Origin: Nitrosococcus oceani ATCC 19707
GTDB lineage: Bacteria > Pseudomonadota > Gammaproteobacteria > Nitrosococcales > Nitrosococcaceae
Direction: 5' to 3'
DNA length: 32,000 bases
Assembly (NCBI RefSeq): GCF_000012805.1
Contig: NC_007484.1
Location: 2,880,001-2,912,000 of the forward strand
The notes below the pieces were generated by a model, which saw only the letters and a list, made by a program, of their open reading frames with translations, was not told the DNA's origin and did no database searches. The position numbers were made by a program, and so were the translations under genes. Shown piece by piece: positions 1,210-15,432 of the stretch (position 1 is the stretch's first letter; each line of letters begins with the position of its first letter).

Positions 1210-1581
1210 CTAATGGCCTGTTCCGTAAGTGGTATCCCGATAAAAATCCTCAAAGACATAGGTAGGGTGAATAATTTTAGCTGTCGGCACGAAAAAAGTC
1301 GCCAATTCCCCTACTCCCACGAGCGTACGGCCAAGGGTTTGACCAATCCCTTTAAGCAACCCCCAGCTTACCCCAATGCCTACATTACTATCCTTGCTAG
1401 TATTTATTATATTTTTAGGAATTTCTACCCAACCAGTCGCTACATTGGCTAATCCACGTCCCAATTTTTCACCCACTTCCGAGCCATAGCCTTCTCCTGC
1501 CAGGGCTGATGAAGTAAAACCCAATAATAATAACGCCAATAAAGCCATGGTCCCTATTGATCTAGTCATTTTATTACCCAC
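1210..1581 (-). CDS. Small secreted protein resembling the exosortase-system-associated TIGR04073 family
   Basis: Signal peptide (MALLALLLLGFTSSALA). The motif GRGLANVATGWVEIPKNI matches my recollection of TIGR04073-type proteins. GTG start at 1581, with an alternative ATG at 1569. Confidence 0.6.
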   Translation of the reverse strand: MGNKMTRSIGTMALLALLLLGFTSSALAGEGYGSEVGEKLGRGLANVATGWVEIPKNIINTSKDSNVGIGVSWGLLKGIGQTLGRTLVGVGELATFFVPTAKIIHPTYVFEDFYRDTTYGTGH

Positions 1582-1610
1582 TATCCTTACCCTTTTCCTT
1601 GTAAAACCTT

Positions 1611-1690
1611 GGAATTAAACATGGATGTTTAATGACCCCCCAGCGAGAGTGCGAAACAAAGTGGCACATCGAGCGCGAGGGCCACATAAA
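1611..1690 (+). repeat. Copy A of an approx. 58-80 nt module shared with the region upstream of tnpB (copy B at 13647-13724, opposite strand)
   Basis: Core 1634-1690 (gaccccccagcgagagtgcgaaacaaagtggcacatcgagcgcgagggccacataaa) differs from the reverse complement of 13647-13704 by 5 substitutions and 1 indel. Weaker similarity extends to 1611. It contains the imperfect hairpin CGA-ga-GTGC...GCAC-a-TCG. Confidence 0.8.
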
Positions 1691-1694
1691 AATA

Positions 1695-2000
1695 GGTCCC
1701 CGGTGTTTGACCCCACCGGGGAAGGGTTGGCTTTCGCCGCAGCCCGAAGGCTGTAAAGGTTCCCTCGCTCAGTTATCTCGCGGTTTCTCCCACCCTTGCG
1801 GGTCAATCCATCGAGGGAGCACTGCCCGTTATCCCGGCCCGTGCTGTTTAACCCCCTGGCGCAGTGTTCGGAGCTGGGAATGCACCCCGAAGTGCCTATC
1901 TTTACCGGCTGAGGTAACACAAGCCCGTCAGCCAGAATTCGCGAGTAACCTCTCCTACCGGAGTAGGGAGCTGGTTGAGTCAATAACTGATCATTTAAAT
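1695..2000 (+). ncRNA. Candidate large structured RNA of unknown class (strand uncertain)
   Basis: There is no credible protein; both overlapping ORFs give Cys/Pro/Arg/Gly-rich junk. Many perfect GC-rich stems are present: 1697-1705/1714-1722, 1740-1744/1749-1753, 1761-1767/1812-1818, 1792-1795/1800-1803, 1819-1822/1841-1844, 1907-1912/1928-1933, 1952-1958/1963-1970, 1946-1950/1973-1977, and long-range 1724-1728/1850-1854. G-U extensions (1739-1754, 1946-1977) are possible only on the + strand. Confidence 0.45.
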
Positions 2001-2117
2001 ACATGGAAGTATGCAAATTTTAGTTAAACCGGGGACTCAACAACCATAGTTGACACTATTAAAACTTGCTAGAGGCGTTGATAATATACGCAAAAAAATA
2101 GAGCTAAAAGCAGTCAA

Positions 2118-3986
2118 ATGAAAAAATGGTTTCTCTACAACAGTATCGCATTAGTACTATTCGGGCTATCCATGGGGAGCTATGGACGCGAAATCCAAGT
2201 GCCTATACAACTCAATAATGAGCTGCTTCGCCATATTCTCATTAGGGAAGTTTATGTCGGTCCCCATCATACGGCCCAGGTCTGGAATGATGATAGCGGC
2301 TGCAATTCTTTAGTGCTTTCCAATCCCCGGGTCGGTAATGCCGGCCAGCAGCTTCGCATTCTCAGTGACGGAATAGCCAAGCTCGGAACGCCCATTGGCA
2401 ATCGCTGTATTCCACTCCTAGACTGGACAGGAACGATTGAAGTATTCCAAAAGCCCATGCTTGGACCCGAACTGACTACCCTCTACTTCCAAACTGTACA
2501 ATCCAATATTTATAACGCCGAAGGGCATAAGGAAGCTGCCACGGGTCAGCTCTGGGATAGGATCAAAGAATATGTACACCCCAGGCTCTCGCAGGTCCGG
2601 ATTGACCTCCAGCCCCAGTTAGCGGAACTGCGAAATCTACTGCCCTTGGTATTATCTCCCCGGGACCGCTCACGGATTCAGACCGCCATTGATTCCCTAA
2701 CCCTGACCGAAGCACAAACGACCCCGGACGGGATTAAGGTCGCCTTGCGTTTTACACTCCCGGATCTCAACACTCCCCCTCCTTCTCCGGAACCGCCCCT
2801 CTCACCTGAGGAAATGCAGCGCTGGGAAGCAGCGTGGCAGCAAGGAGATGCGTTTCTAACCTTTATTATCAAGCAGGCAGCAGCTGAAAATGAGTTAGCA
2901 GAATTACGCCCGCTTTTGTTGGAAATTCTTTTAGACGCCCGTCACGATATAGACAAGGCCCTCACTGCTTCAACGCCTGGAACGGCCGATCCCATCCGCA
3001 CGCTGTTTCTAAAAACCTGGGAACGCCTGGCACCGGTATTGCGCCATTTAAGCCTGAGCATGCCCCATGAAACGGCCCTGCACTACCTGAGCTTTATTGC
3101 CGCCAGTGATGTCCTAAAAACCATTGACCAGCTTGGCCCGGCGTCTGGCCTCGATATCTCCACCGATGGGTTACGCCGGCTAGCCCGGATCATTGCTCCC
3201 CAAGCGGGGCACCATCCCTTGTTTTACAACTTTAAGGTCGATCCTGAGTTGCGGCGCTTATTGGGATTTAGCGTGGCTCCATCCCCTTCTCGGAAAAACT
3301 CGCAACTCAACCTGAACGAGGGGTTATGGCGAAATGCCTGGGCTGCTGATAGCGTTGATCGACCCCTGATTTCACGGCTCAACCAGTGGGTTCCCACGAC
3401 AAAGGATATGGGAACCTACTTACCAATGGTCCACCAGCTCCTGGATCAAACCGTCAGCCATTTACTCCAAACTCATCCCTTGGAAAGCCAATACCACTCA
3501 CTGTACCGCTGGCTCCTGCTGGCTACCGCTTGGCAAGAAAGCTGTTGGCGTCAATTCACCAAGAAGGGAGACAAGATCCGACCGTTCCACTCTGGTGGAG
3601 GCTCGGTAGGTCTCATGCAGATCAATCAAAACGTCTGGCGAGGTTTTTACGATGTGCATGACTTGAACTGGGACATTGCCTACAATGCGCAAGCGGGGGG
3701 AGAAATCTTGTTGCGCTATCTGGTAGATTACGCCATCAAAAAAGGCGAGCATAAAAAAACAGGTGATCTCGATAATCTAGCTCGCGCCACCTATGCCGCT
3801 TATAATGGAGGACCAGGACACTTGAGGCGTTACCGTAAGGCAGGTACGCCAGAGTCCTTGCGTAAGATAGATGCTTCTTTTTGGGACAAATACCGAACCA
3901 TCAAACAGGGTAACGAACTGGCTGTCGCCCAATGCTTTGGTATAGAAGCCTCGTCTTTATCGCTTCCGCCAGGAAACAGAAGATAA
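2118..3986 (+). CDS. Secreted lytic transglycosylase-domain protein with a large uncharacterised N-terminal region
   Basis: Signal peptide MKKWFLYNSIALVLFGLSMGSYG. The C-terminal SLT-type motifs are AWQESCWRQF (catalytic Glu), GLMQINQ and AAYNGGPG. A Pro-rich linker (PPPSPEPPLSPEE) is also present. Confidence 0.85.
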   Translation: MKKWFLYNSIALVLFGLSMGSYGREIQVPIQLNNELLRHILIREVYVGPHHTAQVWNDDSGCNSLVLSNPRVGNAGQQLRILSDGIAKLGTPIGNRCIPLLDWTGTIEVFQKPMLGPELTTLYFQTVQSNIYNAEGHKEAATGQLWDRIKEYVHPRLSQVRIDLQPQLAELRNLLPLVLSPRDRSRIQTAIDSLTLTEAQTTPDGIKVALRFTLPDLNTPPPSPEPPLSPEEMQRWEAAWQQGDAFLTFIIKQAAAENELAELRPLLLEILLDARHDIDKALTASTPGTADPIRTLFLKTWERLAPVLRHLSLSMPHETALHYLSFIAASDVLKTIDQLGPASGLDISTDGLRRLARIIAPQAGHHPLFYNFKVDPELRRLLGFSVAPSPSRKNSQLNLNEGLWRNAWAADSVDRPLISRLNQWVPTTKDMGTYLPMVHQLLDQTVSHLLQTHPLESQYHSLYRWLLLATAWQESCWRQFTKKGDKIRPFHSGGGSVGLMQINQNVWRGFYDVHDLNWDIAYNAQAGGEILLRYLVDYAIKKGEHKKTGDLDNLARATYAAYNGGPGHLRRYRKAGTPESLRKIDASFWDKYRTIKQGNELAVAQCFGIEASSLSLPPGNRR

Positions 3987-4121
3987 GGAGACTAAGCCTT
4001 TCCTCAAAATAAAAACAGGCCAATACTCAGCAAGCCTATGAAAAAGAAGATAAAAGGCACATTCTCCCTCTAATAAATATAAAAAGCGCCCGCACCTGCG
4101 TCAATTGGAAACGGAGAAATC

Positions 4122-4505
4122 GTGGATATTCTTATCGGAGTTCTTATTGGTGGCCTGATTGCAAGCATTGCGCCGCTCACCACCATTATCGCTGATCATC
4201 TACGATGGCGGCGTGAAACCAAGCTAATGCACTTAAAAACTGAGCGGGATAAACTCGAGCAGCGCTTCAGGGAAACCCTGGAGCAGCTATCGAAATCAAT
4301 GGCACGGAATAGCTATCCCGCTGAAATGACATCGGACATCATGATTATGCTGCCAAAGGAAATTTCCGATCCCTACCTGGCTTTTCTAGAAGAAAAGGAT
4401 AAATCAACACCCCAATGCCGCCAAGCTTACCTCCTCATAGCCACCGCCATGAAAGAGTATTTAGGCAGGTTCGATCGGCAAATAGAAGCCCTAATAGCGG
4501 ACTGA
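4122..4505 (+). CDS. Hypothetical protein with an N-terminal transmembrane anchor and a helical/coiled C-terminal part
   Basis: GTG-start ORF with a hydrophobic N-terminus (ILIGVLIGGLIASIAPLTTII). I recognise no family. Confidence 0.5.
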   Translation: MDILIGVLIGGLIASIAPLTTIIADHLRWRRETKLMHLKTERDKLEQRFRETLEQLSKSMARNSYPAEMTSDIMIMLPKEISDPYLAFLEEKDKSTPQCRQAYLLIATAMKEYLGRFDRQIEALIAD

Positions 4506-4667
4506 TATTTATATACTTTTCCAATATGTTTTTTACCCCCCATTAAGCAAAAAGTGGTTTTTATTAAAATAAATAGTATATCTCCACTATTTAAACTAGA
4601 CTATGATTTAGAAAACGGGTTAAAACTTATGACTTTTAGAGATAAAGTCCAAGTTAGGGAGGAAGAT

Positions 4668-5588
4668 ATGAAGAATAAAAAAACCATGGCAATCATGGCA
4701 ATATTTACGCCATTATTGCTAGCTGTTTATACATCCGCGCTAGCGGAGGACGATCATCCCCTGTATGCGCCCTATAAGGGCTGGCCGCCATGCGCTGTTA
4801 TGACGGGGGAAGGAGATATGGCACCTGATGGCAGATCAGTCACGGGAGTCATTTGCCGTTCGACTCTCTTTATTCCAGATAGCGATAAAGACGGAGTCCC
4901 GGACGATAAGGATCAATGCCCTAATACACCTCCAGGCGTTGAAGTGGACGAAGTCGGCTGCCCCCTGGACAGTGACAACGATGGCGTGCCGGACTACCTT
5001 GATCAATGCCCCGATACGCCTATGGGAGTAGAGGTAGGAGAAGATGGCTGCCCCCTGGATAGCGACGGCGATGGCGTGCCGGATTATCTCGATCAATGTC
5101 CCGATACACCCATGGGAGTAGAGGTAAACAGCCAAGGCTGCCCCCTAAGCGTGGACAGTGATGGCGACGGAGTGCCCGATGATATCGATGAGTGCCCCGA
5201 TACAGCGTATGGGGTTGACGTGGACGAGGTGGGTTGTCCCAAGCCTGTCGTGCTTGAAGACGGTGTTCATTTTGGATTTGATTCCGCCAAGCTGTCTCCC
5301 AATGCCCATACCATCCTAGATAAGGTCGTGGAAAATATGCGCACTTATCCTGATTTAGAAATCACCATTGCTGGTCATACAGATAGCACCGGTAACGCGG
5401 ATTACAACCAACGCCTTTCCCAGCTTCGCGCCGAGGCGGCCATGAACTATCTGGCCTCCAAGGGTATTGATCCATCGAGGATGGAAGCAATAGGCTATGG
5501 AGAAGAACGCCCGATTGCCTCCAATTCCACCAAGGAAGGCCGGGCCAAAAATCGCCGGGTTGAACTTCAAACCCACGACGAGGATTAA
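4668..5588 (+). CDS. OmpA-family outer-membrane/peptidoglycan-associated protein with thrombospondin type-3 (calcium-binding) repeats
   Basis: ATG 4668 is preceded by agggagg. Signal peptide MKNKKTMAIMAIFTPLLLAVYTSALA. Four DxDxDGVPDxxDxCPxTPxGVxVxxxGCP repeats are present. The C-terminal OmpA domain carries GHTDSTGNADYNQRLSQLRA and NRRVEL. Confidence 0.9.
   Translation: MKNKKTMAIMAIFTPLLLAVYTSALAEDDHPLYAPYKGWPPCAVMTGEGDMAPDGRSVTGVICRSTLFIPDSDKDGVPDDKDQCPNTPPGVEVDEVGCPLDSDNDGVPDYLDQCPDTPMGVEVGEDGCPLDSDGDGVPDYLDQCPDTPMGVEVNSQGCPLSVDSDGDGVPDDIDECPDTAYGVDVDEVGCPKPVVLEDGVHFGFDSAKLSPNAHTILDKVVENMRTYPDLEITIAGHTDSTGNADYNQRLSQLRAEAAMNYLASKGIDPSRMEAIGYGEERPIASNSTKEGRAKNRRVELQTHDED
4878..5243 (+). repeat. 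Tandem coding repeats (4 x approx. 93-99 bp) encoding TSP type-3 units
   Basis: The repeated peptide is DSDxDGVPDYLDQCPDTPMGVEV...GCPL. The two central units are near-identical at DNA level. Confidence 0.85.
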
Positions 5589-7956: not shown

Positions 7957-8307
7957 ATGAATACAAAACCTTTAAACTCTACCCACAATGGCAATAAAGA
8001 TCCCCTGAAAAAAGCCCCCCAATGGGACATCGCGGAAGCCCAGCGAATCGTGCGAGAAAAACTAGAGGCGATAAAAGCAGATATCTACTTATTTGGTTCT
8101 AGGGCAGATGGAACCATGGGCCGTTATTCGGATATCGACATTGGCATAGATCCCCATGAGCCATTACCCACGGGGCTGCTTGCGGAAATTCGGGAGGCAC
8201 TTGAGGAAAGCCAAATCATTTATCATGTGGACTTGGTCGATCTGTCACAGGTATCCAAAACATTCCGCCGGCGTGTCCTTGAAAAAGGTGTTCAGTGGAA
8301 AGATTAA
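7957..8307 (+). CDS. Minimal nucleotidyltransferase (MNT) antitoxin of an MNT-HEPN pair
   Basis: Pol-beta-type NTase motif LFGSRADGT...YSDIDIGI. It overlaps the downstream HEPN gene by 13 nt. Confidence 0.85.
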   Translation: MNTKPLNSTHNGNKDPLKKAPQWDIAEAQRIVREKLEAIKADIYLFGSRADGTMGRYSDIDIGIDPHEPLPTGLLAEIREALEESQIIYHVDLVDLSQVSKTFRRRVLEKGVQWKD

Positions 8308-8711
8308 GGCAAAGAATCGGTACCGCTCGCAAAGCGCTTTCACAGTTTGAAAAACTGGCTAATTTATCTCAGCCTAACAATATTGAGCGCGATGCCGGTA
8401 TACAAAGCTTTGAATTCAGCTTCGAAGCCGTCTGGAAGACCGCTCAGCGACATCTCCAGATTATAGAGGGAATAGACGCGGCGTCCCCAAAAACCGTCAT
8501 TAGGGCTTCCTCGCAAACAAATCTTTTCGATGAGGACGAATCACGTCTCGCGCTGCAAATGGCGGACGACCGTAATCTCACCTCTCCTACTTATAACGAA
8601 GCGCTTGCCAAGAAGATCTTCTCCCGCTTAGGCGCCTATCATAAGTTCATGGGCAACTGGCTAAACCGCATGGAAGAAAAACTCGGAAAAAGTAGCGTTT
8701 CCCGCGCATGA
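8295..8711 (+). CDS. HEPN-domain protein (HI0074-like 'nucleotidyltransferase substrate-binding' family) with a variant active-site motif
   Basis: RDAGIQSFEFSFEAVWK and DDRNLTSPTYNE match the HI0074/HepT family signature. The expected His of R-x4-H is Pro (CCT, 8586-8588). Confidence 0.82.
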   Translation: MERLRQRIGTARKALSQFEKLANLSQPNNIERDAGIQSFEFSFEAVWKTAQRHLQIIEGIDAASPKTVIRASSQTNLFDEDESRLALQMADDRNLTSPTYNEALAKKIFSRLGAYHKFMGNWLNRMEEKLGKSSVSRA

Positions 8712-8770
8712 TCGCTAAATAAAGGCATGACTATCTTAAAATAACGCCCTGCTGCTACCACTATTATGCT

Positions 8771-8943
8771 ATGCGCGCGATAGATCAAAATCCAAACATC
8801 ATTCCAGGCTATGGAATCCCTCGGGGTTATGTGGAATTACGCAGTTGAAATCCAATCATGTGGTCATACCACATCCGCGCAAGGATATCCCTATTGGTAC
8901 GCTACACAATATCTACCGGCAAGCTGGATGGAAGTGGAGGTAA
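8771..8943 (+). pseudogene. hicA: HicA toxin pseudogene (frameshifted)
   Basis: The C-terminal part NHVVIPHPRKDIPIGTLHNIYRQAGWKWR* (8833-8943 frame) matches the HicA consensus. The upstream part (ATG 8771 ...RGYVELRS*) is in another frame and stops at 8846-8848. Its stop lies 3 nt before the hicB ATG. Confidence 0.55.
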
Positions 8944-8946
8944 GAC

Positions 8947-9345
8947 ATGTTGTATCCGGTCTATATTCATCCAGGTGATAATAAGCATGCTCACGGAGTA
9001 ACCTTTCCTGATTTCCCCGGATGTTTCTCCGCGGCTGATTCCTGGGAGGAACTGCCCACCAAAATTCAGGAGGCAGTAGAGCTGTATTTCGAGGGAGAGA
9101 CAATGGAGATCCCACCTCCCACACCGCTGGAGGAATTAGCTCAGCGCCCAGAATTCGAGGACGGTGCGTGGATGATGGTGGATATTAATTGCTCCCGCAT
9201 ACGTCCCAAGGCGACGCGCATCAATATCTCTCTGCCCGAAGCCTTGGTGCGCCGCATCGATGAATACGCAAAGGCACACCAGATGAGTCGTTCCGGGTTT
9301 CTGGCAAAGGTCGCCGAAGAGGCAATGCGTAAGAAGCACAACTAA
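8947..9345 (+). CDS. hicB: HicB-family antitoxin with C-terminal ribbon-helix-helix
   Basis: The N-terminal HicB fold signature is MLYPVYIHPGDNKHAHGVTFPDFPGCFSAADSWEE. The C-terminal RHH is INISLPEALVRRIDEYAKAHQMSRSGFLA. Confidence 0.85.
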   Translation: MLYPVYIHPGDNKHAHGVTFPDFPGCFSAADSWEELPTKIQEAVELYFEGETMEIPPPTPLEELAQRPEFEDGAWMMVDINCSRIRPKATRINISLPEALVRRIDEYAKAHQMSRSGFLAKVAEEAMRKKHN

Positions 9346-9458
9346 ACCGGCGGTATTCTGCACTTCTTTCAGCTTTCACAGAAAAATGGTCAAACTCCTG
9401 TATCCTAACTTCCCGGATTTCGATGCAAATAGCCTCGTGGAACATTTCAAAAAGCGCC

Positions 9459-9500
9459 GTAGGCCGGATTAAGCATAGCGTATCCGGCAAAATCCGGATA
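9459..9500. repeat. REP-like palindromic unit cluster
   Basis: In gtagGCCGGATtaagcatagcgtATCCGGCaaaaTCCGGATa, three CCGGAT-type arms can form alternative hairpins. A related unit lies at 11783-11817. Confidence 0.4.
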
Positions 9501-9506
9501 CTCACT

Positions 9507-9590
9507 TCAGTTCGACATAGCCCTGTGAACAAATCTATCCTATGCCCGGCCCAACACAATGGAAATAACCCTTCGCTTATGTCGAACTGA
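9507..9590. repeat. Perfect 13-bp inverted repeat flanking a 58-nt spacer
   Basis: tcagttcgacata (9507-9519) and tatgtcgaactga (9578-9590) are exact reverse complements in an otherwise non-coding stretch. Confidence 0.6.
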
Positions 9591-9674
9591 CATTTGGGCC
9601 AAGACCATCAATTGCCGGGTAACCTTGTGGGTATTACACTATTTTAATCAAAAAATACGTTGTGAAAATTTGCC

Positions 9675-9944
9675 ATGGCAACGACTCTTACCAGTAAAGG
9701 CCAAGTTACGGTGCCGAAGAAGATTCGCGATTATCTCGGCTTGCGCCCAGGATCAGCGGTTGATTTTTCCCTTGGACCCCACGGCGAAGTGATCCTGCGT
9801 CCGGCGGAAGATACCCCACCAGAACGCCGCAAGGATCGTTTCGGCAAGCTGAGAGGTACGCTCGATACCGGCAGGACTACCGATGAATGGATGCATTTAC
9901 TGCGTGGCTACGATGCTGACGCAAGTGATCCTGGCCTGAAATGA
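9675..9944 (+). CDS. vapB: AbrB/MazE/SpoVT-fold antitoxin (VapB-type)
   Basis: MATTLTSKGQVTVPKKIRDYLGLRPGSAVDF is a classic SpoVT/AbrB swapped-hairpin motif. It overlaps the downstream PIN ORF by 4 nt (ATGA). Confidence 0.85.
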   Translation: MATTLTSKGQVTVPKKIRDYLGLRPGSAVDFSLGPHGEVILRPAEDTPPERRKDRFGKLRGTLDTGRTTDEWMHLLRGYDADASDPGLK

Positions 9945-10260
9945 TCCTGGTCGATACCTGCGTGCTGCTGGATGTGGTGCAAGGCGATCCACACTGGGCG
10001 GACGGGTCGCTGACACGGCTAGAATGGGCTGCGGAACACGGCAAACGGGTGATTAACCCGATCGTGTATGCCGAATTCTCGGTGTGGTATGACGTTAGGA
10101 AAGAGTTAGCACAAACCCTTGCCGGAATTTTAAATAGCGTGTGCCCGTAGGAGGGAAGGGAATCCATCCACTCTCCATTTAGGCGAAGAAACCCTGGAAA
10201 GGCTTACTTGACAAGCAGAAAAACGAGGAACGGGAGTCATGATTTGGACGGGAAAATAGA
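9941..10260 (+). pseudogene. vapC: PIN-domain VapC toxin, interrupted by an in-frame TAG (10148-10150) and C-terminally degraded
   Basis: MILVDTCVLLDV and INPIVYAEFS are PIN motifs, but the ORF is only 69 aa. After the TAG the same frame still reads ...PGKAYLTSRKTRNGS, then loses the C-terminal PIN acidic motif. Confidence 0.65.
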
Positions 10261-10280
10261 GAAATTCGTGCATGTTTTAT

Positions 10281-10309
10281 AAAAAAAGCGGGACCTGAAA
10301 GGGTCCCGC
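10281..10309 (-). terminator. Rho-independent terminator of the pilin gene
   Basis: The minus strand reads GCGGGACC-ctttca-GGTCCCGC followed by TTTTTTT, about 30 nt after the pilin stop. Confidence 0.8.
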
Positions 10310-10338
10310 CTCTTAACCTCTGTTAATAAAGAGATAAT

Positions 10339-10782
10339 TTAAGAAGTTGTGGTAGCGGTACGACATGAGGCCGGTACGTGCTTCAACTCCCCAGCAGACG
10401 TTGTACAAACCCAGGTAATTGGATCTTCTGAGTTTGTTTGCGTTGGTTTTAGAACAAATACAGGCTGGGTAGAAGCACCCGTCGCTTTCGTAGTAACAGT
10501 AATGACACCATCATCTGCAATTATAATACTATCTACATAATCAGTCTTATTAGAAAGCTCATAACCGGAGTTGGCTGCAGTAACGTTCGTTAACCCCCCC
10601 AGTGATGCTGCAGTTTCAGCAACCGCCGTTTTAGCTTCAGAAGCAAGTGTTACCGCTTCAGATACCTTTGCCCGAATGGTGTAGTCCTGATAGGCGGGGA
10701 TGGCCACAGAAGCCAAAATACCAATGATCGCCACCACGATCATCAATTCAATCAAGGTAAAACCCTGTTGTACTTTTCTCAT
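10339..10782 (-). CDS. pilA: Type IVa major pilin
   Basis: Prepilin leader and cleavage/methylation motif [36 protein letters not shown]-terminal disulfide loop is present (C...VPASC). A GGAG RBS lies upstream. Confidence 0.93.
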
Positions 10783-10870
10783 TACGCATTACTCCAAAAT
10801 GAATGTAATAGAATCCAAACTTTGTACGGTTGACAGTTCCATGTTTTCTCTGCCTGCACCCTTAAATAAG

Positions 10871-10885
10871 GCAATCCATATGCCA
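10871..10885 (-). promoter_or_regulatory. Sigma-54 (-24/-12) promoter candidate for pilA
   Basis: The minus strand reads TGGCAT-ATGGA-TTGC, matching the consensus TGGCAC-N5-TTGC, about 90 nt upstream of the pilA ATG. Type IV pilin genes are commonly RpoN/PilR dependent. Confidence 0.6.
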
Positions 10886-11197
10886 TGCTTCTGTTTCGGC
10901 CAAAGACGCCGCAGCTTTATGGGAAGGGGTTCACACAATCAGGAGATAACGACCCAGTGAAAGATGGGGGGCGGCTATTCGGGCGTGGGAAATCAACGGG
11001 AAGAGGCGCTTTATGTGCCCAGGGAAGGCCAAAAGTGACGTTCTGGGTCACTCTAGCCGGCCGTCATTCAAAAATGGCAGCACATAGGACAGAAAAGCGG
11101 GCGTTTTTTACTTGCGATCCCCAGATTCCCTTAATTGTGGTGCAATAATGGTGTAAAAATGAACCACTAATACTATTTAGGAGAAGGAGAATATGCC

Positions 11198-11437
11198 ATG
11201 GCCAGACAAAGTATTTCTTTTACCCCACCCAATGATGCCTGGCTCAAAGCCCAGGTAGACAGTCAGGAATTTACTAGCAAGAGCGAAGTGGTGAATGATC
11301 TTATCCGCAAGGCCCGCAAGATTGAATTAATTCGCGCCAAACTGATTGCCGCTGAGCAGAGTGGGTTTTCCAACCAATCACCGGAGGAAAGGCTGGCGGG
11401 CTTCCACCAGAAAGCCCGGCAAGATGGGAAGTTATAG
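11198..11437 (+). CDS. parD: ParD-family (COG3609, RHH) antitoxin
   Basis: MARQSISFTPPNDAWLKAQVDSQEFTSKSEVVNDLIRKAR is the typical ParD/CC2985-type N-terminus. Its stop overlaps the start of the parE remnant. Confidence 0.85.
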   Translation: MARQSISFTPPNDAWLKAQVDSQEFTSKSEVVNDLIRKARKIELIRAKLIAAEQSGFSNQSPEERLAGFHQKARQDGKL

Positions 11438-11713
11438 GCTTTACTGAAAACGCCGAAGCGGATCTCTATCGCATTTGGTTATAGGGCCTTGAACATTGGG
11501 GCCTGGAGCAGGCAGACGCCTATTACGATGCGTTCATGCAGCATTTTGCGGCACTGGCAGAGAATCCCTTTTTAATACCCCGCCGTGGATGAACTCCGCG
11601 CAGGATACCGGCGCAGCGTGTGCGGCTCAGACAGTGTATATTACCGCATTGTGGGCGAAACGGTTGAAATCATGGCGATTATAGGCCGTCAGGATTTAGA
11701 GGCGTGGTTGTAA
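11424..11713 (+). pseudogene. parE: ParE toxin pseudogene (two frameshifts plus one nonsense codon)
   Basis: The conceptual repair reads MGSYRL/TENAEADLYRIWL*GLEHWGLEQADAYYDAFMQHFAALAENPFLIP/VDELRAGYRRSVCGSDSVYYRIVGETVEIMAIIGRQDLEAWL*. The lesions lie near 11440-11442, at TAG 11482-11484, and near 11578-11584. Confidence 0.8.
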
Positions 11714-11782
11714 GGCTGGGTATTGACCAGCCTTGGCGCCGGGGCCTTGCTGATGGGCGTGCTTACTTTTGTGGGACAGCTC

Positions 11783-11817
11783 GTAGGGCAGGAAAGCGTA
11801 GCGCATCCCGCTCTGCC
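11783..11817. repeat. REP-like palindromic unit related to 9459-9488
   Basis: gtagGGCAGgaaagcgtagcgcatcccgctCTGCC is roughly 70% similar to the 9459 unit. A T7 run follows at 11836-11842. Confidence 0.35.
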
Positions 11818-11871
11818 TTAATAACCTGCCGTGGGTTTTTTTATTGAGTCGTCTCGTGCCAAGATCTCTCT

Positions 11872-12270
11872 CTACACAACATCCTGATCGCGGGTATCTA
11901 CAAGATCATCGATATCCACTCCAAGCACCTTGGCGATCTGCTTGAGCGCTTTGACGGTCCCCTCCCTTTCTCCTTTTTCTATCATCGCTAGGTAGGATTG
12001 GCTTAATTCTGCCTGTTCCGCCAGATTGTGCTGAGTCAGGCCACGATAGATTCGCCATACTTTGATGGGGTTCTCGCCTTCCACCAGCCTCTTAACGACC
12101 TCGTGCGGCATCGCTTCCCCGCCAACAACCATTGCCTGATCAAAGGCGGCGACATCCTCCAGCATTTCTGCCTTTTCCTTTAGCGCCAAATATTCCTCGT
12201 AGGGCAAAACAGCCCATTCCGGCTTATCTCCACGCTTAATTAACGGCTTGATATCCAAATCCGATTGCAT
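11872..12270 (-). CDS. HTH (XRE-family) antitoxin-like protein with a Phd-like N-terminal segment
   Basis: From Met at 12270: MQSDLDIKPLIKRGDKPEWAVLPYEEYLALKEKAEMLEDVAAFDQA, followed by the HTH motif IYRGLTQHNLAEQAELSQSYLAMIEKGEREGTVKALKQIAKVLGV. The ORF stays open 33 codons further upstream to ATG 12369; see findings. Confidence 0.8.
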   Translation of the reverse strand: MQSDLDIKPLIKRGDKPEWAVLPYEEYLALKEKAEMLEDVAAFDQAMVVGGEAMPHEVVKRLVEGENPIKVWRIYRGLTQHNLAEQAELSQSYLAMIEKGEREGTVKALKQIAKVLGVDIDDLVDTRDQDVV

Positions 12271-12274
12271 GGGA

Positions 12275-12440
12275 TCTTGGAGTTTGCGGCTAAGTCTCGC
12301 TTGGCTGTTCCCGACAGCCGCGCTCGCCTTGCTGCAATTCGCGTTTCGCAGGCGTCCTTTGGCGGTCATAGGACCACCTCCAGTGGGTATACGCCTCCAC
12401 GCGCATCACTTCCGGTCCTCCCAACCGTAGCTAACCTTAA
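12275..12440 (-). ncRNA. Candidate TnpB omega-RNA (reRNA) scaffold spanning the tnpB 3' end and right end
   Basis: The position follows the known architecture of TnpB guide RNAs. Visible stems are 12370-12375/12414-12419 (AGGACC/GGTCCT, bracketing the stop codon), 12374-12377/12383-12386 and 12303-12308/12314-12319. Boundaries are not determined. Confidence 0.4.
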
Positions 12441-13538
12441 AATATTTTTAGCCGCGTTAATATCGCGGTCATGGACTGACTTACAGTCCGAGCAGGTCCA
12501 CTGCCGCACTTTGAGCGGCATGGCTTTTTGCACTGCGCCACACGCCGAGCACGTTTTACTGGTCGGCGCCCACCTATCCACTTGCCTAAACGCCCGGCCA
12601 TACCACGGGGCTTTGTATTCCAGTTGCCGCTTGAGTTCGTGCATGCCTACATCGCCCAAGGCTTTAGCGATGCGCCGGTTGGCCATCATGCCCCTGACGT
12701 TGAGCGTTTCCATGGCAATGAACCCCGCCTGGCGAATCAGTGCCGTGGTGAGTTTGTGCAACCAGTCCTGACGGGTGTTGCTCACCCTGGCGTGGGCCTT
12801 GGCGACCCTTACTCGCTGACGATGCCAGCGAACGCTTCCCTTGCGCTTGCGGGATAGCCTGCGCTGGGTTTTGGTGAGTAGACGCCGATAAGTGCGTAGG
12901 TGCCGTGGGTTGCCTGACTTCCAGCCCTCGGAGGTCACCACCACATCGCTTATACCCACATCAATACCGATACCGTTTGGCTTTCGCGGTAGGGGTTGGA
13001 GGGTTTCCTCGCACATGAACGAAACACAATAACAACCCGCGCAGTCCTGGGTGACCGAGACCATTTTGGGTATACCCTGGGGCTTACGAGACCATTTTAA
13101 ACTGAGTGCCCCAAGCTTGGGGAGTTTAAGCAACTTGCCCGCTCGATACCTTCCCGCTACCTGGCGTTGGTCAAGTTGATAGCGGATGCTTTGAGCGTGG
13201 GCTCTTTTTTTGAAACGGGGATACTTCGCTCGCCCTGCAAAGAAGTTTTTAAACGCGGTGTCCTGGTCTCTAAGCTTTTGATTGAGTGTGGTCGCGCTGG
13301 CCTCTTTTAACCAACCATAGGCCGCCGTCTTTTTTAGCTTGGTGAGGTGCCCGCTAAAGTCAACGCCGCTAACATGCTTGTCGTGCAGCCGGTATTGACG
13401 GCCACGCCAGGTCAGACAGGTGTTCCAGACCCACCGGGCATGGCCAAACTCCATCGCGAGTTGCTGGCGCTGGACGCTCGTGGGGTAAAAGCGGAATGTA
13501 TAGGACCGCTGAAGGGTGGTAGAATCGCATTGGGTCAT
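12366..13538 (-). CDS. tnpB: IS200/IS605-family accessory protein TnpB (RNA-guided RuvC nuclease), apparently intact
   Basis: Starts MTQCDSTTLQRSYTFRFYPT. RuvC residues are GIDVGISD (D), IAMETLNV (E) and HDRDINAAKNI (D). The zinc finger is CSACG...CSDCK. I place the start at Met 13538 rather than at the 454-aa ORF start. Confidence 0.92.
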   Translation of the reverse strand: MTQCDSTTLQRSYTFRFYPTSVQRQQLAMEFGHARWVWNTCLTWRGRQYRLHDKHVSGVDFSGHLTKLKKTAAYGWLKEASATTLNQKLRDQDTAFKNFFAGRAKYPRFKKRAHAQSIRYQLDQRQVAGRYRAGKLLKLPKLGALSLKWSRKPQGIPKMVSVTQDCAGCYCVSFMCEETLQPLPRKPNGIGIDVGISDVVVTSEGWKSGNPRHLRTYRRLLTKTQRRLSRKRKGSVRWHRQRVRVAKAHARVSNTRQDWLHKLTTALIRQAGFIAMETLNVRGMMANRRIAKALGDVGMHELKRQLEYKAPWYGRAFRQVDRWAPTSKTCSACGAVQKAMPLKVRQWTCSDCKSVHDRDINAAKNILRLATVGRTGSDARGGVYPLEVVL

Positions 13539-13646
13539 GGCCTCAATACTCGTCCTATTGGGTCGGTGGCAAGTGGCTAGGGGGTACTGATAATACTGCC
13601 TAGCCGCGCTTATTCTACCGCCAATTTTGCCCGCCGCAGACATCAC

Positions 13647-13724
13647 TTTATGCGGCCCTCGCGATCGATGCGCCACTTCGTTTCGCACGCTCGCTGGGGG
13701 GGGTCGTCGTACATCCCTGTATTC
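13647..13724 (-). repeat. Copy B of the module shared with 1611-1690, located 110-190 nt upstream of the tnpB start
   Basis: The reverse complement of 13647-13704 is gacccccccagcgagcgtgcgaaacgaagtggcgcatcgatcgcgagggccgcataaa, about 90% identical to 1634-1690. Confidence 0.8.
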
Positions 13725-13772
13725 CTTCATGCCACTCCCTTCTTCAACTTGGATTAAGCAGCGTGGCAGGGT

Positions 13773-13791
13773 GCTCTCTTGATCAAGCAGA
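13773..13791. promoter_or_regulatory. Near-perfect 19-bp palindrome, a possible operator
   Basis: CTCT-CTTGATCAAG-c-AGAG has a central perfect 10-bp palindrome (13777-13786). It lies just outside the inferred left end of the tnpB element and is followed on the minus strand by nothing but that element and the HTH gene. Confidence 0.35.
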
Positions 13792-13877
13792 GTTATCTTT
13801 TTTTGAAAAACAACAAATTTAATATGCGGGGTAGAAAAGCAGCAAGATGGAGGCGGCGTTCCTCTCCTACCTACTCT

Positions 13878-14288
13878 CTATTCCTTAGCTGGACCTGCTT
13901 CCGCCACGGGTATGACAGGATAGCCGTGGGCGCGCGCACTCCGGGAAAATTTCCCGTCAAAAGTATAAAATACGCTAGCAGCCCCGGCGCTTGCAAGATG
14001 CATGGCATCCGCAAAATCTAGCCCTTTCTCGTAGAGATTCAATGCAAGGGAAACCTCGCCCGACGCTTCAACTCGCACATTCGGTAAACCCAGAATATGG
14101 CGCATAGCTCTTAATACCACTTCAGACGGTAGATCATAAACGGCTTCTAAAACCCACCCTAACTCTAGCAGCACTGTTTTAGTCACCAAAATCTCATTGG
14201 AGCCTAGCAGCGCCATTGCCTGCTGCGCCTGAATCTCATCGTCATTGGTCACATAACGTACCCATACGTTGGTATCTACAGCGATCAT
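13878..14288 (-). CDS. vapC: PIN-domain VapC toxin (full length)
   Basis: MIAVDTNVWV, LLELGWVL, DFADAMHLA and TFD are the four PIN acidic positions. It overlaps the upstream antitoxin by 4 nt. Confidence 0.9.
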   Translation of the reverse strand: MIAVDTNVWVRYVTNDDEIQAQQAMALLGSNEILVTKTVLLELGWVLEAVYDLPSEVVLRAMRHILGLPNVRVEASGEVSLALNLYEKGLDFADAMHLASAGAASVFYTFDGKFSRSARAHGYPVIPVAEAGPAKE

Positions 14289-14554
14289 CTTTTTTTATTT
14301 TTGGACCAACATTGGCGTAGGCTTTCGGCAATGCCTTTATCCATTTCCTCCAGGGATTTCGGGCTGCCTTGGTAACCCGTACAACCTAGTCCTTTTTCCA
14401 GACGGGTGACAGGAAAGGGTTTTAGAGGCCGGAGAATAAGATTCCCGTCTCTCTCTTCAACAATAAATTCCATTCCAGCATCCCAATGATGCGCTGCCCG
14501 GATAGTCTTAGGAATAATAATTTGTCCTTTACTGGAAAGGCGAGTGATTTCCAC
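14285..14554 (-). CDS. vapB: AbrB/SpoVT-fold VapB antitoxin
   Basis: MEITRLSSKGQIIIPKTIRAAHHWDAGMEFIV is a SpoVT/AbrB motif. Confidence 0.88.
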   Translation of the reverse strand: MEITRLSSKGQIIIPKTIRAAHHWDAGMEFIVEERDGNLILRPLKPFPVTRLEKGLGCTGYQGSPKSLEEMDKGIAESLRQCWSKNKKR

Positions 14555-14663
14555 AATATTTCCCTAGGTAAGATTTAGTAAGACGAAATACTACCATTCT
14601 TCTTCCAGGGAAACAATAAACACGTAGGACTTACCTAAAGGGAGGGCCAAACGCTGCTCATTG

Positions 14664-15230
14664 CTAAAAAACCTCTGTAAGCGCAAGGCGCAATCCCGGC
14701 AACAAGGGCGATCGCAAAACCTCCCTCTCGCCATAGCACGCCACCCTTTCAAATCCCCGCGGCCCTAGAGTAAGCAGTTCAATAACGCGAGACTCAGGGT
14801 CCACTAGCCAATATTCCTTAACCCCATAGCGGGCATAGAGGGTGCTTTTGTAAGTCCGGTCACGGCGAGCGGTTGCTGGGGAAAGAATTTCGACAATCAA
14901 ATCAGGCGCTCCTCGGATTTCGGTTTCCGCAATCATCGAAGCGCGCGCCTTGGCAATAAAAAAGATATCGGGCTGAACGATTTCCCTGCCACTGCCCTGG
15001 CCCAACACCACATCCAGGGGAGCACTATAAATCTGGCCTAGATCGCGCTCTTGTACATATTCCCACAGCAGAAACCCCAGATTGCGGGAGAGGCGCTGAT
15101 GATACTCGCTGGGTGAGGGCACCATCACCAGTTCCCCGTCCAGAAGTTCGTAGCGCCGTATTTCCGACTCGGGTAGACTTTTGTAATCTTCATAACGGAA
15201 CTTGATCCGGGAATCGGCTCCCAGGCCCAT
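14664..15230 (-). CDS. Uma2-family (DUF820) restriction-endonuclease-fold protein
   Basis: YELLDGELVMVPSPSEYHQ, QPDIFFI, PDLIVEILSP and EYWLVDP are typical Uma2 motifs. The start is placed at Met 15230 (MGLGADSRIKF...). Confidence 0.85.
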   Translation of the reverse strand: MGLGADSRIKFRYEDYKSLPESEIRRYELLDGELVMVPSPSEYHQRLSRNLGFLLWEYVQERDLGQIYSAPLDVVLGQGSGREIVQPDIFFIAKARASMIAETEIRGAPDLIVEILSPATARRDRTYKSTLYARYGVKEYWLVDPESRVIELLTLGPRGFERVACYGEREVLRSPLLPGLRLALTEVF

Positions 15231-15432
15231 GGCGTTTATCCTCCCTGGCGCTCGTTTGGCAGTACGTGTTTGAATTATAGCAGCGGGCAATATTTCCCAG
15301 CGAGAAAAGCGCACCGGTAGAGTATCGGCGCCAAGACTGGCATAATTTGTCCTTGTCTTATAATCTTTGCGCAGATAAAAGAATCTTATTTCTCAATTTT
15401 AACCCTTAGATTTTACTGGACTTTAACTGGCT

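Follow-up and report, generated by a model that had tools for sequence, protein, structure and literature searches.

The stretch of DNA analysed here (the window: 32,000 nucleotides of Nitrosococcus oceani ATCC 19707, contig NC_007484.1, positions 2,880,001 to 2,912,000) carries on its minus strand a tnpB gene (12366..13538) whose 390-amino-acid product appears intact, both from its Pfam matches to HTH_OrfB_IS605 (PF12323), OrfB_IS605 (PF01385) and Cas12f1-like_TNB (PF07282) and from an alignment with 11 relatives in which D193, E277 and D359, which we take to be the RuvC acidic residues, are invariant. The closest named relatives of this protein are from Nitrosococcus oceani. One copy of a repeated sequence module (copy B) precedes the likely tnpB start at 13538 by about 110 nt, and a longer ORF of 454 amino acids in the ORF list is a read-through of this module; the other copy (copy A) lies some 12 kb away, beside a segment described in the initial annotation as structured. 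We found neither a tnpA nor an iscB gene within the 32-kb window. Around the tnpB element lies a toxin-antitoxin island (7957-15314), made up of a nucleotidyltransferase and substrate-binding pair (7957-8711), HicB (8947-9345), AbrB/MazE (9675-9944), a VapC-PIN gene with AbrB/MazE (13878-14554) and Uma2 (14664-15314). A weak match to ctRNA_p42d inside the nucleotidyltransferase gene (8007-8041, minus strand; 26.6 bits, E 0.07) is probably due to chance, and four tandem 90-nt repeats at 4878-5243, which are 66-71% identical to one another, encode thrombospondin type-3 repeats in an OmpA-family protein (4554-5588).

The initial annotation had reported that the two copies match over about 57 nt with five substitutions and a single-C indel. 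The match is real and aligns 55 nt of copy A (1636-1690, plus strand) with copy B (13701-13647, minus strand), and five bases are substituted (window positions 1648, 1658, 1666, 1673 and 1684); the C-run just upstream of this core contains six Cs in copy A and eight in copy B, so that the indel comprises two Cs rather than one. The weaker similarity that had been noted outside the core also holds and reaches slightly further than previously described, since a global alignment carries it out to 1609-1703 (plus strand) and 13729-13634 (minus strand), with identity falling from about 90% in the core to about 79% of alignment columns end to end. The outermost 25 nt are the most diverged part of copy A, and past 1703 and 13634 the two loci are unrelated in sequence. 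According to a repeat finder, no inverted repeat in the window is longer than this pair (68 nt, 84%), and a degenerate pattern that covers both copies occurs at only two sites in the 32 kb and at none in 100 dinucleotide-preserving shuffles. The repeat is thus far beyond chance. We further built a covariance model of the outer 49 nt of the module from relatives (R1), which scores copy B at 48.1 bits and copy A at 43.9 bits (E 2e-9) and detects exactly these two copies, and none further, in the window. Rfam gave no family for the module, either as it occurs in the window or in its relatives, and scans with exact patterns gave no matches in collections of genome and metagenome contigs to which the source genome does not belong. 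In a scan of viral sequences, GACGACCCCCYAGCGAG had one match (in L095), which lies inside a coding region and which we discarded as a chance occurrence.

The folding of the module is conserved at two levels, the outer of which the initial annotation had missed. This terminal hairpin sits in the region that had been called weakly similar and begins about 6-8 nt inside the outer boundary of the module. In copy A (1614..1633, plus strand) it was identified by DNA folding and covariation and takes the form ATTAAACA-TGGA-TGTTTAAT with the core AAACATGGATGTTT, in which an AAACA/TGTTT stem can be extended to 8 bp (ATTAAACA/TGTTTAAT); in copy B (13710..13721, minus strand), assigned from the covariation set, it is TACA-GGGA-TGTA, with a TACA/TGTA stem. 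Across 11 left ends, 90.7% of cells are paired and three of the five pairs have changed on both sides, a covariation score that was reached by 0 of 500 column shuffles and that collapses when the register is slid. Because the terminal stems of both copies stay paired, the outer weak similarity reflects a compensated stem and not decay. The second level is a long imperfect hairpin of copy A (1639..1681, plus strand; CCC..GCG..GUGCG ... CACAU..CGC..GGG in the RNAalifold consensus), closed by CCC/GGG and GCG/CGC, for which RNAalifold on five left ends of the short type predicts 13 pairs, four of them with compensatory changes; in L027 an extra hairpin is inserted in its apical loop. The hairpin originally described can be drawn, and it lies within this longer structure as an alternative register of its middle part, but the relatives favour a register shifted by one, as illustrated by L093, in which pair 53-104 changes from U-A to C-G. 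The A/G difference between the copies, which had been read as U-A versus U-G pairing, becomes C.A versus C-G in the favoured register. The terminal hairpin is better supported than the one first described and is the more likely of the two to be functional.

To place the module in context we turned to relatives of the tnpB gene. Besides the window's gene, three 90%-identity clusters contain at least six other tnpB accessions from N. oceani ATCC 19707, all distinct, as well as members from AFC27, C-27 and N. watsonii, and so this tnpB is one of a multi-copy IS family. The relatives on genome contigs are at most 57% identical to the window's TnpB, and those from metagenomes reach 53-56% at best among the matches listed. 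TnpB relatives of 53-56% identity (metagenomes, IMG/VR) share a fixed left terminus, GAAGGAG, followed by the hairpin GCGCA yGGA TGCGC and then CGACGACCCC. Between GAAGGAG and ...GGATTCCAA, tnpB included, three loci (L022, L023 and L092) are 100% identical, and they lie in three unrelated flanks, which shows that the module moves with tnpB as part of a discrete mobile unit, defines both boundaries of that unit and makes the module its left end; for the window's own subfamily the support for a discrete unit is indirect and comes from two metagenomic loci with a 78%-identical TnpB (L093 and L094), together with a change of flank in the N. oceani tnpB annotation P0131. The left end of L093 and L094, TGAAGGAGTACAGGATGTACGACGACCCCCTAGCGAGG...GCGCGAGGGCAACATAAC, is clearly the window's module. 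In the N. oceani tnpB annotations P0140, P0143 and P0131, the N-terminal extension is translated module sequence (MYDDP..ARVR..AHRARG.HK): P0140 starts MYDDPLARVRSGTAHRARGSHKVM and P0143 starts MYDDPPASVRSETLLRARGQGKVT, in-frame translations that align with those of both window copies, and P0131 carries the translation of the window's left end with a different sequence immediately before KEYRDV. This flank change places the left boundary at or just before GAAGGAA (13728, to within 1 nt), so that copy B (13634..13729, minus strand), as judged from R1, from homology with L022, L023, L092 and L093 and from P0131, is the left end of the tnpB element.

R1 detected 14 left-end sites in 13 loci, three of which (L023, L028 and L094) duplicate an element or insertion locus that is already in the count; 12 of the 14 sites lie upstream of tnpB. 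REP and BIME repeats are palindromes of 20-40 nt that are dense in intergenic regions and are not tied to one cargo. The module is by comparison about 95 nt long, is present in two copies in 32 kb and is systematically linked to tnpB; it is not a generic REP-type repeat, whereas a repeat of that type would, according to the initial annotation, have broken the proposed link. Two left-end-like modules with no tnpB within reach were also seen (L016 3836-3884, plus strand, and L091 853-901, minus strand; 51-57 bits with R1), one of them followed by an H-NS-like ORF and the other in an IMG/VR provirus with a terminator upstream and a long ORF downstream. Such modules may stand alone or may belong to elements with a different cargo. 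Other variations were noted in the space between the left end and tnpB: among more distant relatives, six loci (L014, L016, L021, L022, L023 and L092) have a small antisense ORF there that looks ribbon-helix-helix-like by eye and L029 has an XRE-like gene, and the window's subfamily has neither insert. On one metagenomic contig (L021) three tnpB genes stand in tandem (128-1420, 1916-3208 and 3639-5319), two of them identical and without the left-end module. With regard to annotation, several public gene models of N. oceani tnpB start 25-100 codons too early, inside the left end, and their MYDDP... N-termini are translations of a transposon end. We considered a conserved small peptide (MYDDP...) and rejected it, since the module copies are mutually frame-shifted and the ATG is not conserved.

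On the minus strand the tnpB element runs for 1453 bp, from 13729 to 12277, in the order left end, tnpB, omega RNA and right end. Its predicted omega RNA scaffold and right end (12277..12440, minus strand) end homologously to L093 and to L022-type elements; the right terminus of L093 is GCGAAACTCCAA and that of the window element is ...GCCGCAAACTCCAA, the flanks diverge beyond it, and this homology sets the end of the window element at 12277. The right boundary is likewise fixed across the loci L013 to L022. Twenty-six nucleotides from this end lies a subterminal hairpin, GGCTGT-CGGGA-ACAGCC (12319-12303, minus strand). TnpB biology predicts that the guide is the sequence adjoining the right end on its outer side, GAUCCCAUGCAAUCGGAUUU (12257..12276, minus strand). 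An XRE/HTH_3 ORF listed at 11872-12369 (minus strand) starts inside the tnpB omega RNA, and its gene model has probably been over-extended into that RNA, the true start being the ATG at 12270, 6 nt past the right end of the element. Given this likely start, the predicted guide (12276-12257) would overlap the start codon of the downstream XRE-type gene.

The structured segment beside copy A corresponds to HEARO (RF02033). Rfam assigned it to no family at gathering thresholds; a search by E-value returned a match to HEARO from 2041 to 1753 on the minus strand that covers all 211 model positions, with the helices and the pseudoknot region aligned, with an E-value of 3e-12 when computed for the region and of 1.2e-10 for the 32 kb as a whole. 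The window sequence differs from the model by large insertions and by a 3' extension with a terminator-like hairpin, and its score of 62.9 bits lies below the gathering score of 83. The terminator-like hairpin occupies 1722-1697 and is followed by a T-run to about 1688 that abuts the module, which delimits the predicted RNA to 1688..2041; its fold z-score is -2.8. From this match we conclude that the segment is a HEARO, or IscB-type omega RNA, scaffold encoded on the minus strand. As a result, copy A would belong to a protein-less, IscB-derived element whose cargo is antisense to the module. The initial annotation had placed the module on the 5' side of its cargo in both copies, which is correct in DNA order; in copy A, however, module and cargo lie on opposite strands. 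The tnpB 3' end and the 1695-2000 segment share no similarity.

No iscB follows the HEARO match on the minus strand; there is no ORF with HNH or RuvC domains directly downstream, and the next ORF encodes a secreted-type protein of 123 amino acids (1210-1581) with no Pfam match. The gap between the HEARO match and the left end is only about 50 nt, and we found no promoter-like site upstream of HEARO. ORF-less HEARO copies have reportedly been known since the work of Weinberg et al. in 2010. The element bounded by copy A and the HEARO 5' end (1609-2041, 433 bp; hereafter the mini-element) contains only spurious ORFs without homologues, among them ORF 1632-2027, for which a homology search returned nothing, and copy A (1609..1703, plus strand), from its alignment with copy B and its R1 score, is its left end, with an outer boundary good to about 3 nt on either side. 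Short, devoid of protein genes and with left and right ends like those of a resident IS, the mini-element looks like a PATE-like, omega-RNA-only element. Searches of plasmid, viral, genome and metagenome collections, to which the source genome does not belong, gave no other copy of it, blastn of the HEARO and tnpB elements against plasmids gave nothing relevant, and a single HEARO-linked copy of the module was seen in all. The mini-element starts about 28 nt upstream of the small secreted-type gene at 1210-1581 (minus strand; gap 1582-1608), and this short gap means that the promoter of that gene must lie inside or beyond the mini-element.

We next compared the right ends of the two elements. 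Just inside the HEARO 5' end at 2041 stand, in this one copy, a hairpin like that of the left end and a terminus similar to the one that closes the tnpB element on the right. The hairpin, ATACATGGAAGTAT (1999..2012, plus strand), was found as a pattern match, with a weak R1 match at 1999-2013, and lies 29 nt from the HEARO 5' end; it and the left-end hairpin AAACATGGATGTTT (1617-1630), which lies on the same strand, are identical in 12 of 14 positions, and one A-T stem pair is exchanged for T-A. The pattern AWACATGGAWGTWT occurs in the window only at these two sites, both on the plus strand, a statistic that is only indicative because the pattern was chosen after both sites had been seen. Hairpins with a GGA loop also stand at the right ends of relatives, for example CCGG-ATGGA-CCGG in L016 and CCGCC-TGGATAG-GGCGG in L022; by eye they are present in the window, L016, L022, L014 and L018, and across the family a loop with GGA recurs at both ends. 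The right termini read ...AAACTCCAA in the tnpB element, a terminus shared with L093 and L094, ...GGATTCCAA in the relatives and ...GGGGACTCAA(C) at HEARO, so that the terminal bases of the two window elements are alike (ACTCCAA and ACTCAA(C), respectively). The similarity between the tnpB and HEARO right ends is limited to the loop motif and about seven terminal bases, and we regard the right-end evidence for the two elements as suggestive, not strong. In both elements the end at which a guide would be specified (the HEARO 5' end and the tnpB omega RNA) is the one far from the module, and a candidate guide flank for the HEARO RNA, by analogy with the architecture described by Meers 2023, is UAAUAGUGUCAACUAUGGUU (2042..2061, minus strand), just outside its 5' end. 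Elements of the IS200/IS605 superfamily insert 3' of a specific target of 4-5 nt (the TAM) and do not duplicate it. To the left of GAAGGAG the flanks show no clear target or TAM consensus and no duplication, the 4-mers there including CGTT, CGAT, CATT, GCAT, CAAG and CATC.

These observations probably reflect a single arrangement, in which the module is the left end of a non-autonomous IS200/IS605 family represented in the window by a tnpB-only element (copy B) and by a protein-less HEARO element (copy A). Copy B's element encodes TnpB, with its RuvC-like OrfB_IS605 domain and zinc ribbon, as expected of a tnpB-only element of the IS1341-like or IS605B kind, and terminal inverted repeats are absent, with subterminal hairpins on the same strand instead. 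Similar same-strand hairpins at both ends, bound by TnpA, are a hallmark of IS200/IS605 ends (PMC10055086). The first option of the initial annotation, in which both copies are an IS200/IS605-type left end carrying a subterminal hairpin, is supported, in that the module lies at the outer boundary of the tnpB elements of relatives. Under the published mechanism, from which we infer recognition by TnpA, the activity of either element and the guides, a Y1 (HUH) TnpA encoded elsewhere in the genome would recognise, on one strand, the hairpins with GGA loops close to the two ends, excise the bound strand as a circle and insert it beside a short target sequence. The emptied sites would then be re-cut by TnpB and its omega RNA, which would lead to the element being copied back, and TnpB and IscB would each take their guide from the sequence that flanks the right end on the outside. 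The HEARO mini-element, plausibly a PATE-like offshoot of an ISC (IscB) element, would depend on TnpA and IscB both being supplied in trans; failing that, it would be a relic.

Other readings of the repeat account for parts of these data. Were the module a shared promoter or 5' leader driving the downstream sequence on the same strand at both loci, an option that the initial annotation had kept alongside the left end, its position upstream of tnpB on the tnpB coding strand would be expected, as would the occurrence of GAAGGAR with an ATG about 7 nt further on in most copies and the 39-amino-acid ORF called in L093. However, HEARO is encoded on the opposite strand and would be transcribed towards the module, neither copy contains a sigma-70-like promoter, the TAGAAT / TATAAT box upstream of tnpB (13608-13622) falls beyond the end of the similarity between the copies, and the short ORF is frame-shifted between them and has no ATG in L024, all of which makes this reading highly improbable. 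We also think it improbable that the module existed as a dispersed repeat in its own right (REP-like, or a preferred insertion target) and that the tnpB and HEARO elements each inserted beside it. IS200/IS605 elements do insert beside specific short motifs and REP-like hairpins, left-end-like copies without tnpB exist (L016:3836 and L091), and the loci are unrelated beyond 1703 and 13634, but the identical units of module and tnpB in three flanks have no common sequence to their left, the module stands ahead of several different tnpB paralogues of N. oceani, it has only two copies in the 32 kb, and the right-end hairpin of the mini-element mirrors the module's terminal hairpin, as would be expected if the module were the left end of that element.

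Of the copy A locus in particular, it could be said that it is a dead fragment, a scar joining the decayed left end of a tnpB element to a decayed IscB element, with no mobility or RNA function. The missing iscB, the lack of a promoter-like site upstream of HEARO, the single copy seen, the sub-threshold HEARO score and the divergence of the outermost 25 nt of copy A all speak for such an origin, and although we hold it to be unlikely on balance, it has some credit. It sits poorly with the terminal stem of copy A, which is fully paired through compensatory changes and, at 8 bp, is longer than that of copy B, with the agreement between the left-end and right-end hairpins of the mini-element and with a HEARO match that spans the full length of the model. 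At the other extreme, copy A might mark an active, autonomous-looking transposon consisting of a guide RNA only, with a left end of the tnpB family and an omega RNA and right end of the IscB type, in a genome that may have no iscB. We give this reading very little weight. If it were true, it would imply either that a nuclease other than the cognate one uses the RNA in trans or that the RNA has been domesticated for regulation, and also that left and right ends have been swapped as modules between TnpB and IscB elements.

The interpretation that we favour, namely a left end shared by a tnpB-only element and a protein-less HEARO element, can be set against several known systems. IS608 has hairpin-to-end spacings of about 19 and about 10 nt and a right terminus that reads TCAA. 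Like IS608 and ISDra2, the window elements have no terminal inverted repeats, carry end hairpins on the same strand and place tnpB before an omega RNA at the right end, and their right terminus, which ends in CAA, resembles the TCAA of IS608. They differ from IS608 in their hairpin spacing (6-8 nt at the left end and 26-29 nt at the right), and from both IS608 and ISDra2 in the second long hairpin of the left end and in having no adjacent tnpA. The closest precedents pair elements with different cargo. Within one genome, the termini of ISC (IscB) transposons recur in TnpB-only IS605B elements, and in these pairs TnpB is encoded "in their antisense strands" (Kapitonov 2016, PMC4810608), as exemplified by ISC2-1_KR and IS605B-1_KR (Kapitonov, Makarova and Koonin 2016, PMC4810608); a member of this group, ISC2-1_NH, is present in four copies in Nitrosococcus halophilus (PMC4810608). 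The window resembles these pairs in that elements with different cargo share hairpin-bearing termini, in that tnpB is antisense to the IscB-type component (here HEARO) and in the presumed mobilisation in trans by a Y1 TnpA. It differs in that its IscB-type partner has lost iscB or never had it, and in that only one end shows strong similarity, whereas the other has just a loop motif and a few terminal bases in common.

Similarly, the TnpB and IscB families of Geobacillus stearothermophilus have highly similar left and right ends (Meers 2023, PMC10055086), and the same study describes HEARO as bounded by the right end and PATE-like protein-less elements that "often encode omega RNAs" and need a nuclease in trans (PMC10055086). 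Left and right ends common to TnpB and IscB families, a HEARO bounded by the right end and protein-less elements are thus features that ISGst1-5 and the PATE-like elements (PMC10055086) have in common with the window, where the right-end boundary of HEARO is a probable one; the window for its part comes from another phylum, has unrelated end sequences and represents a family known from sequence alone. A search of the literature for Nitrosococcus together with HEARO or IS200 yielded nothing specific.

What is new here is thus the host and the sequences of the ends; the arrangement itself has already been published, and the understanding of these systems is unchanged. The boundaries of the tnpB element (13729-12277) and of the mini-element (1609-2041) are useful for annotation. 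Two features of this region that had gone unannotated are explained together, the structured locus as an orphan guide RNA of the IscB type and the other, the repeat, as a transposon end that links this RNA to the resident tnpB family. In this way, the locus adds a gammaproteobacterial example to the published sharing of ends and transposase by IscB- and TnpB-type elements.
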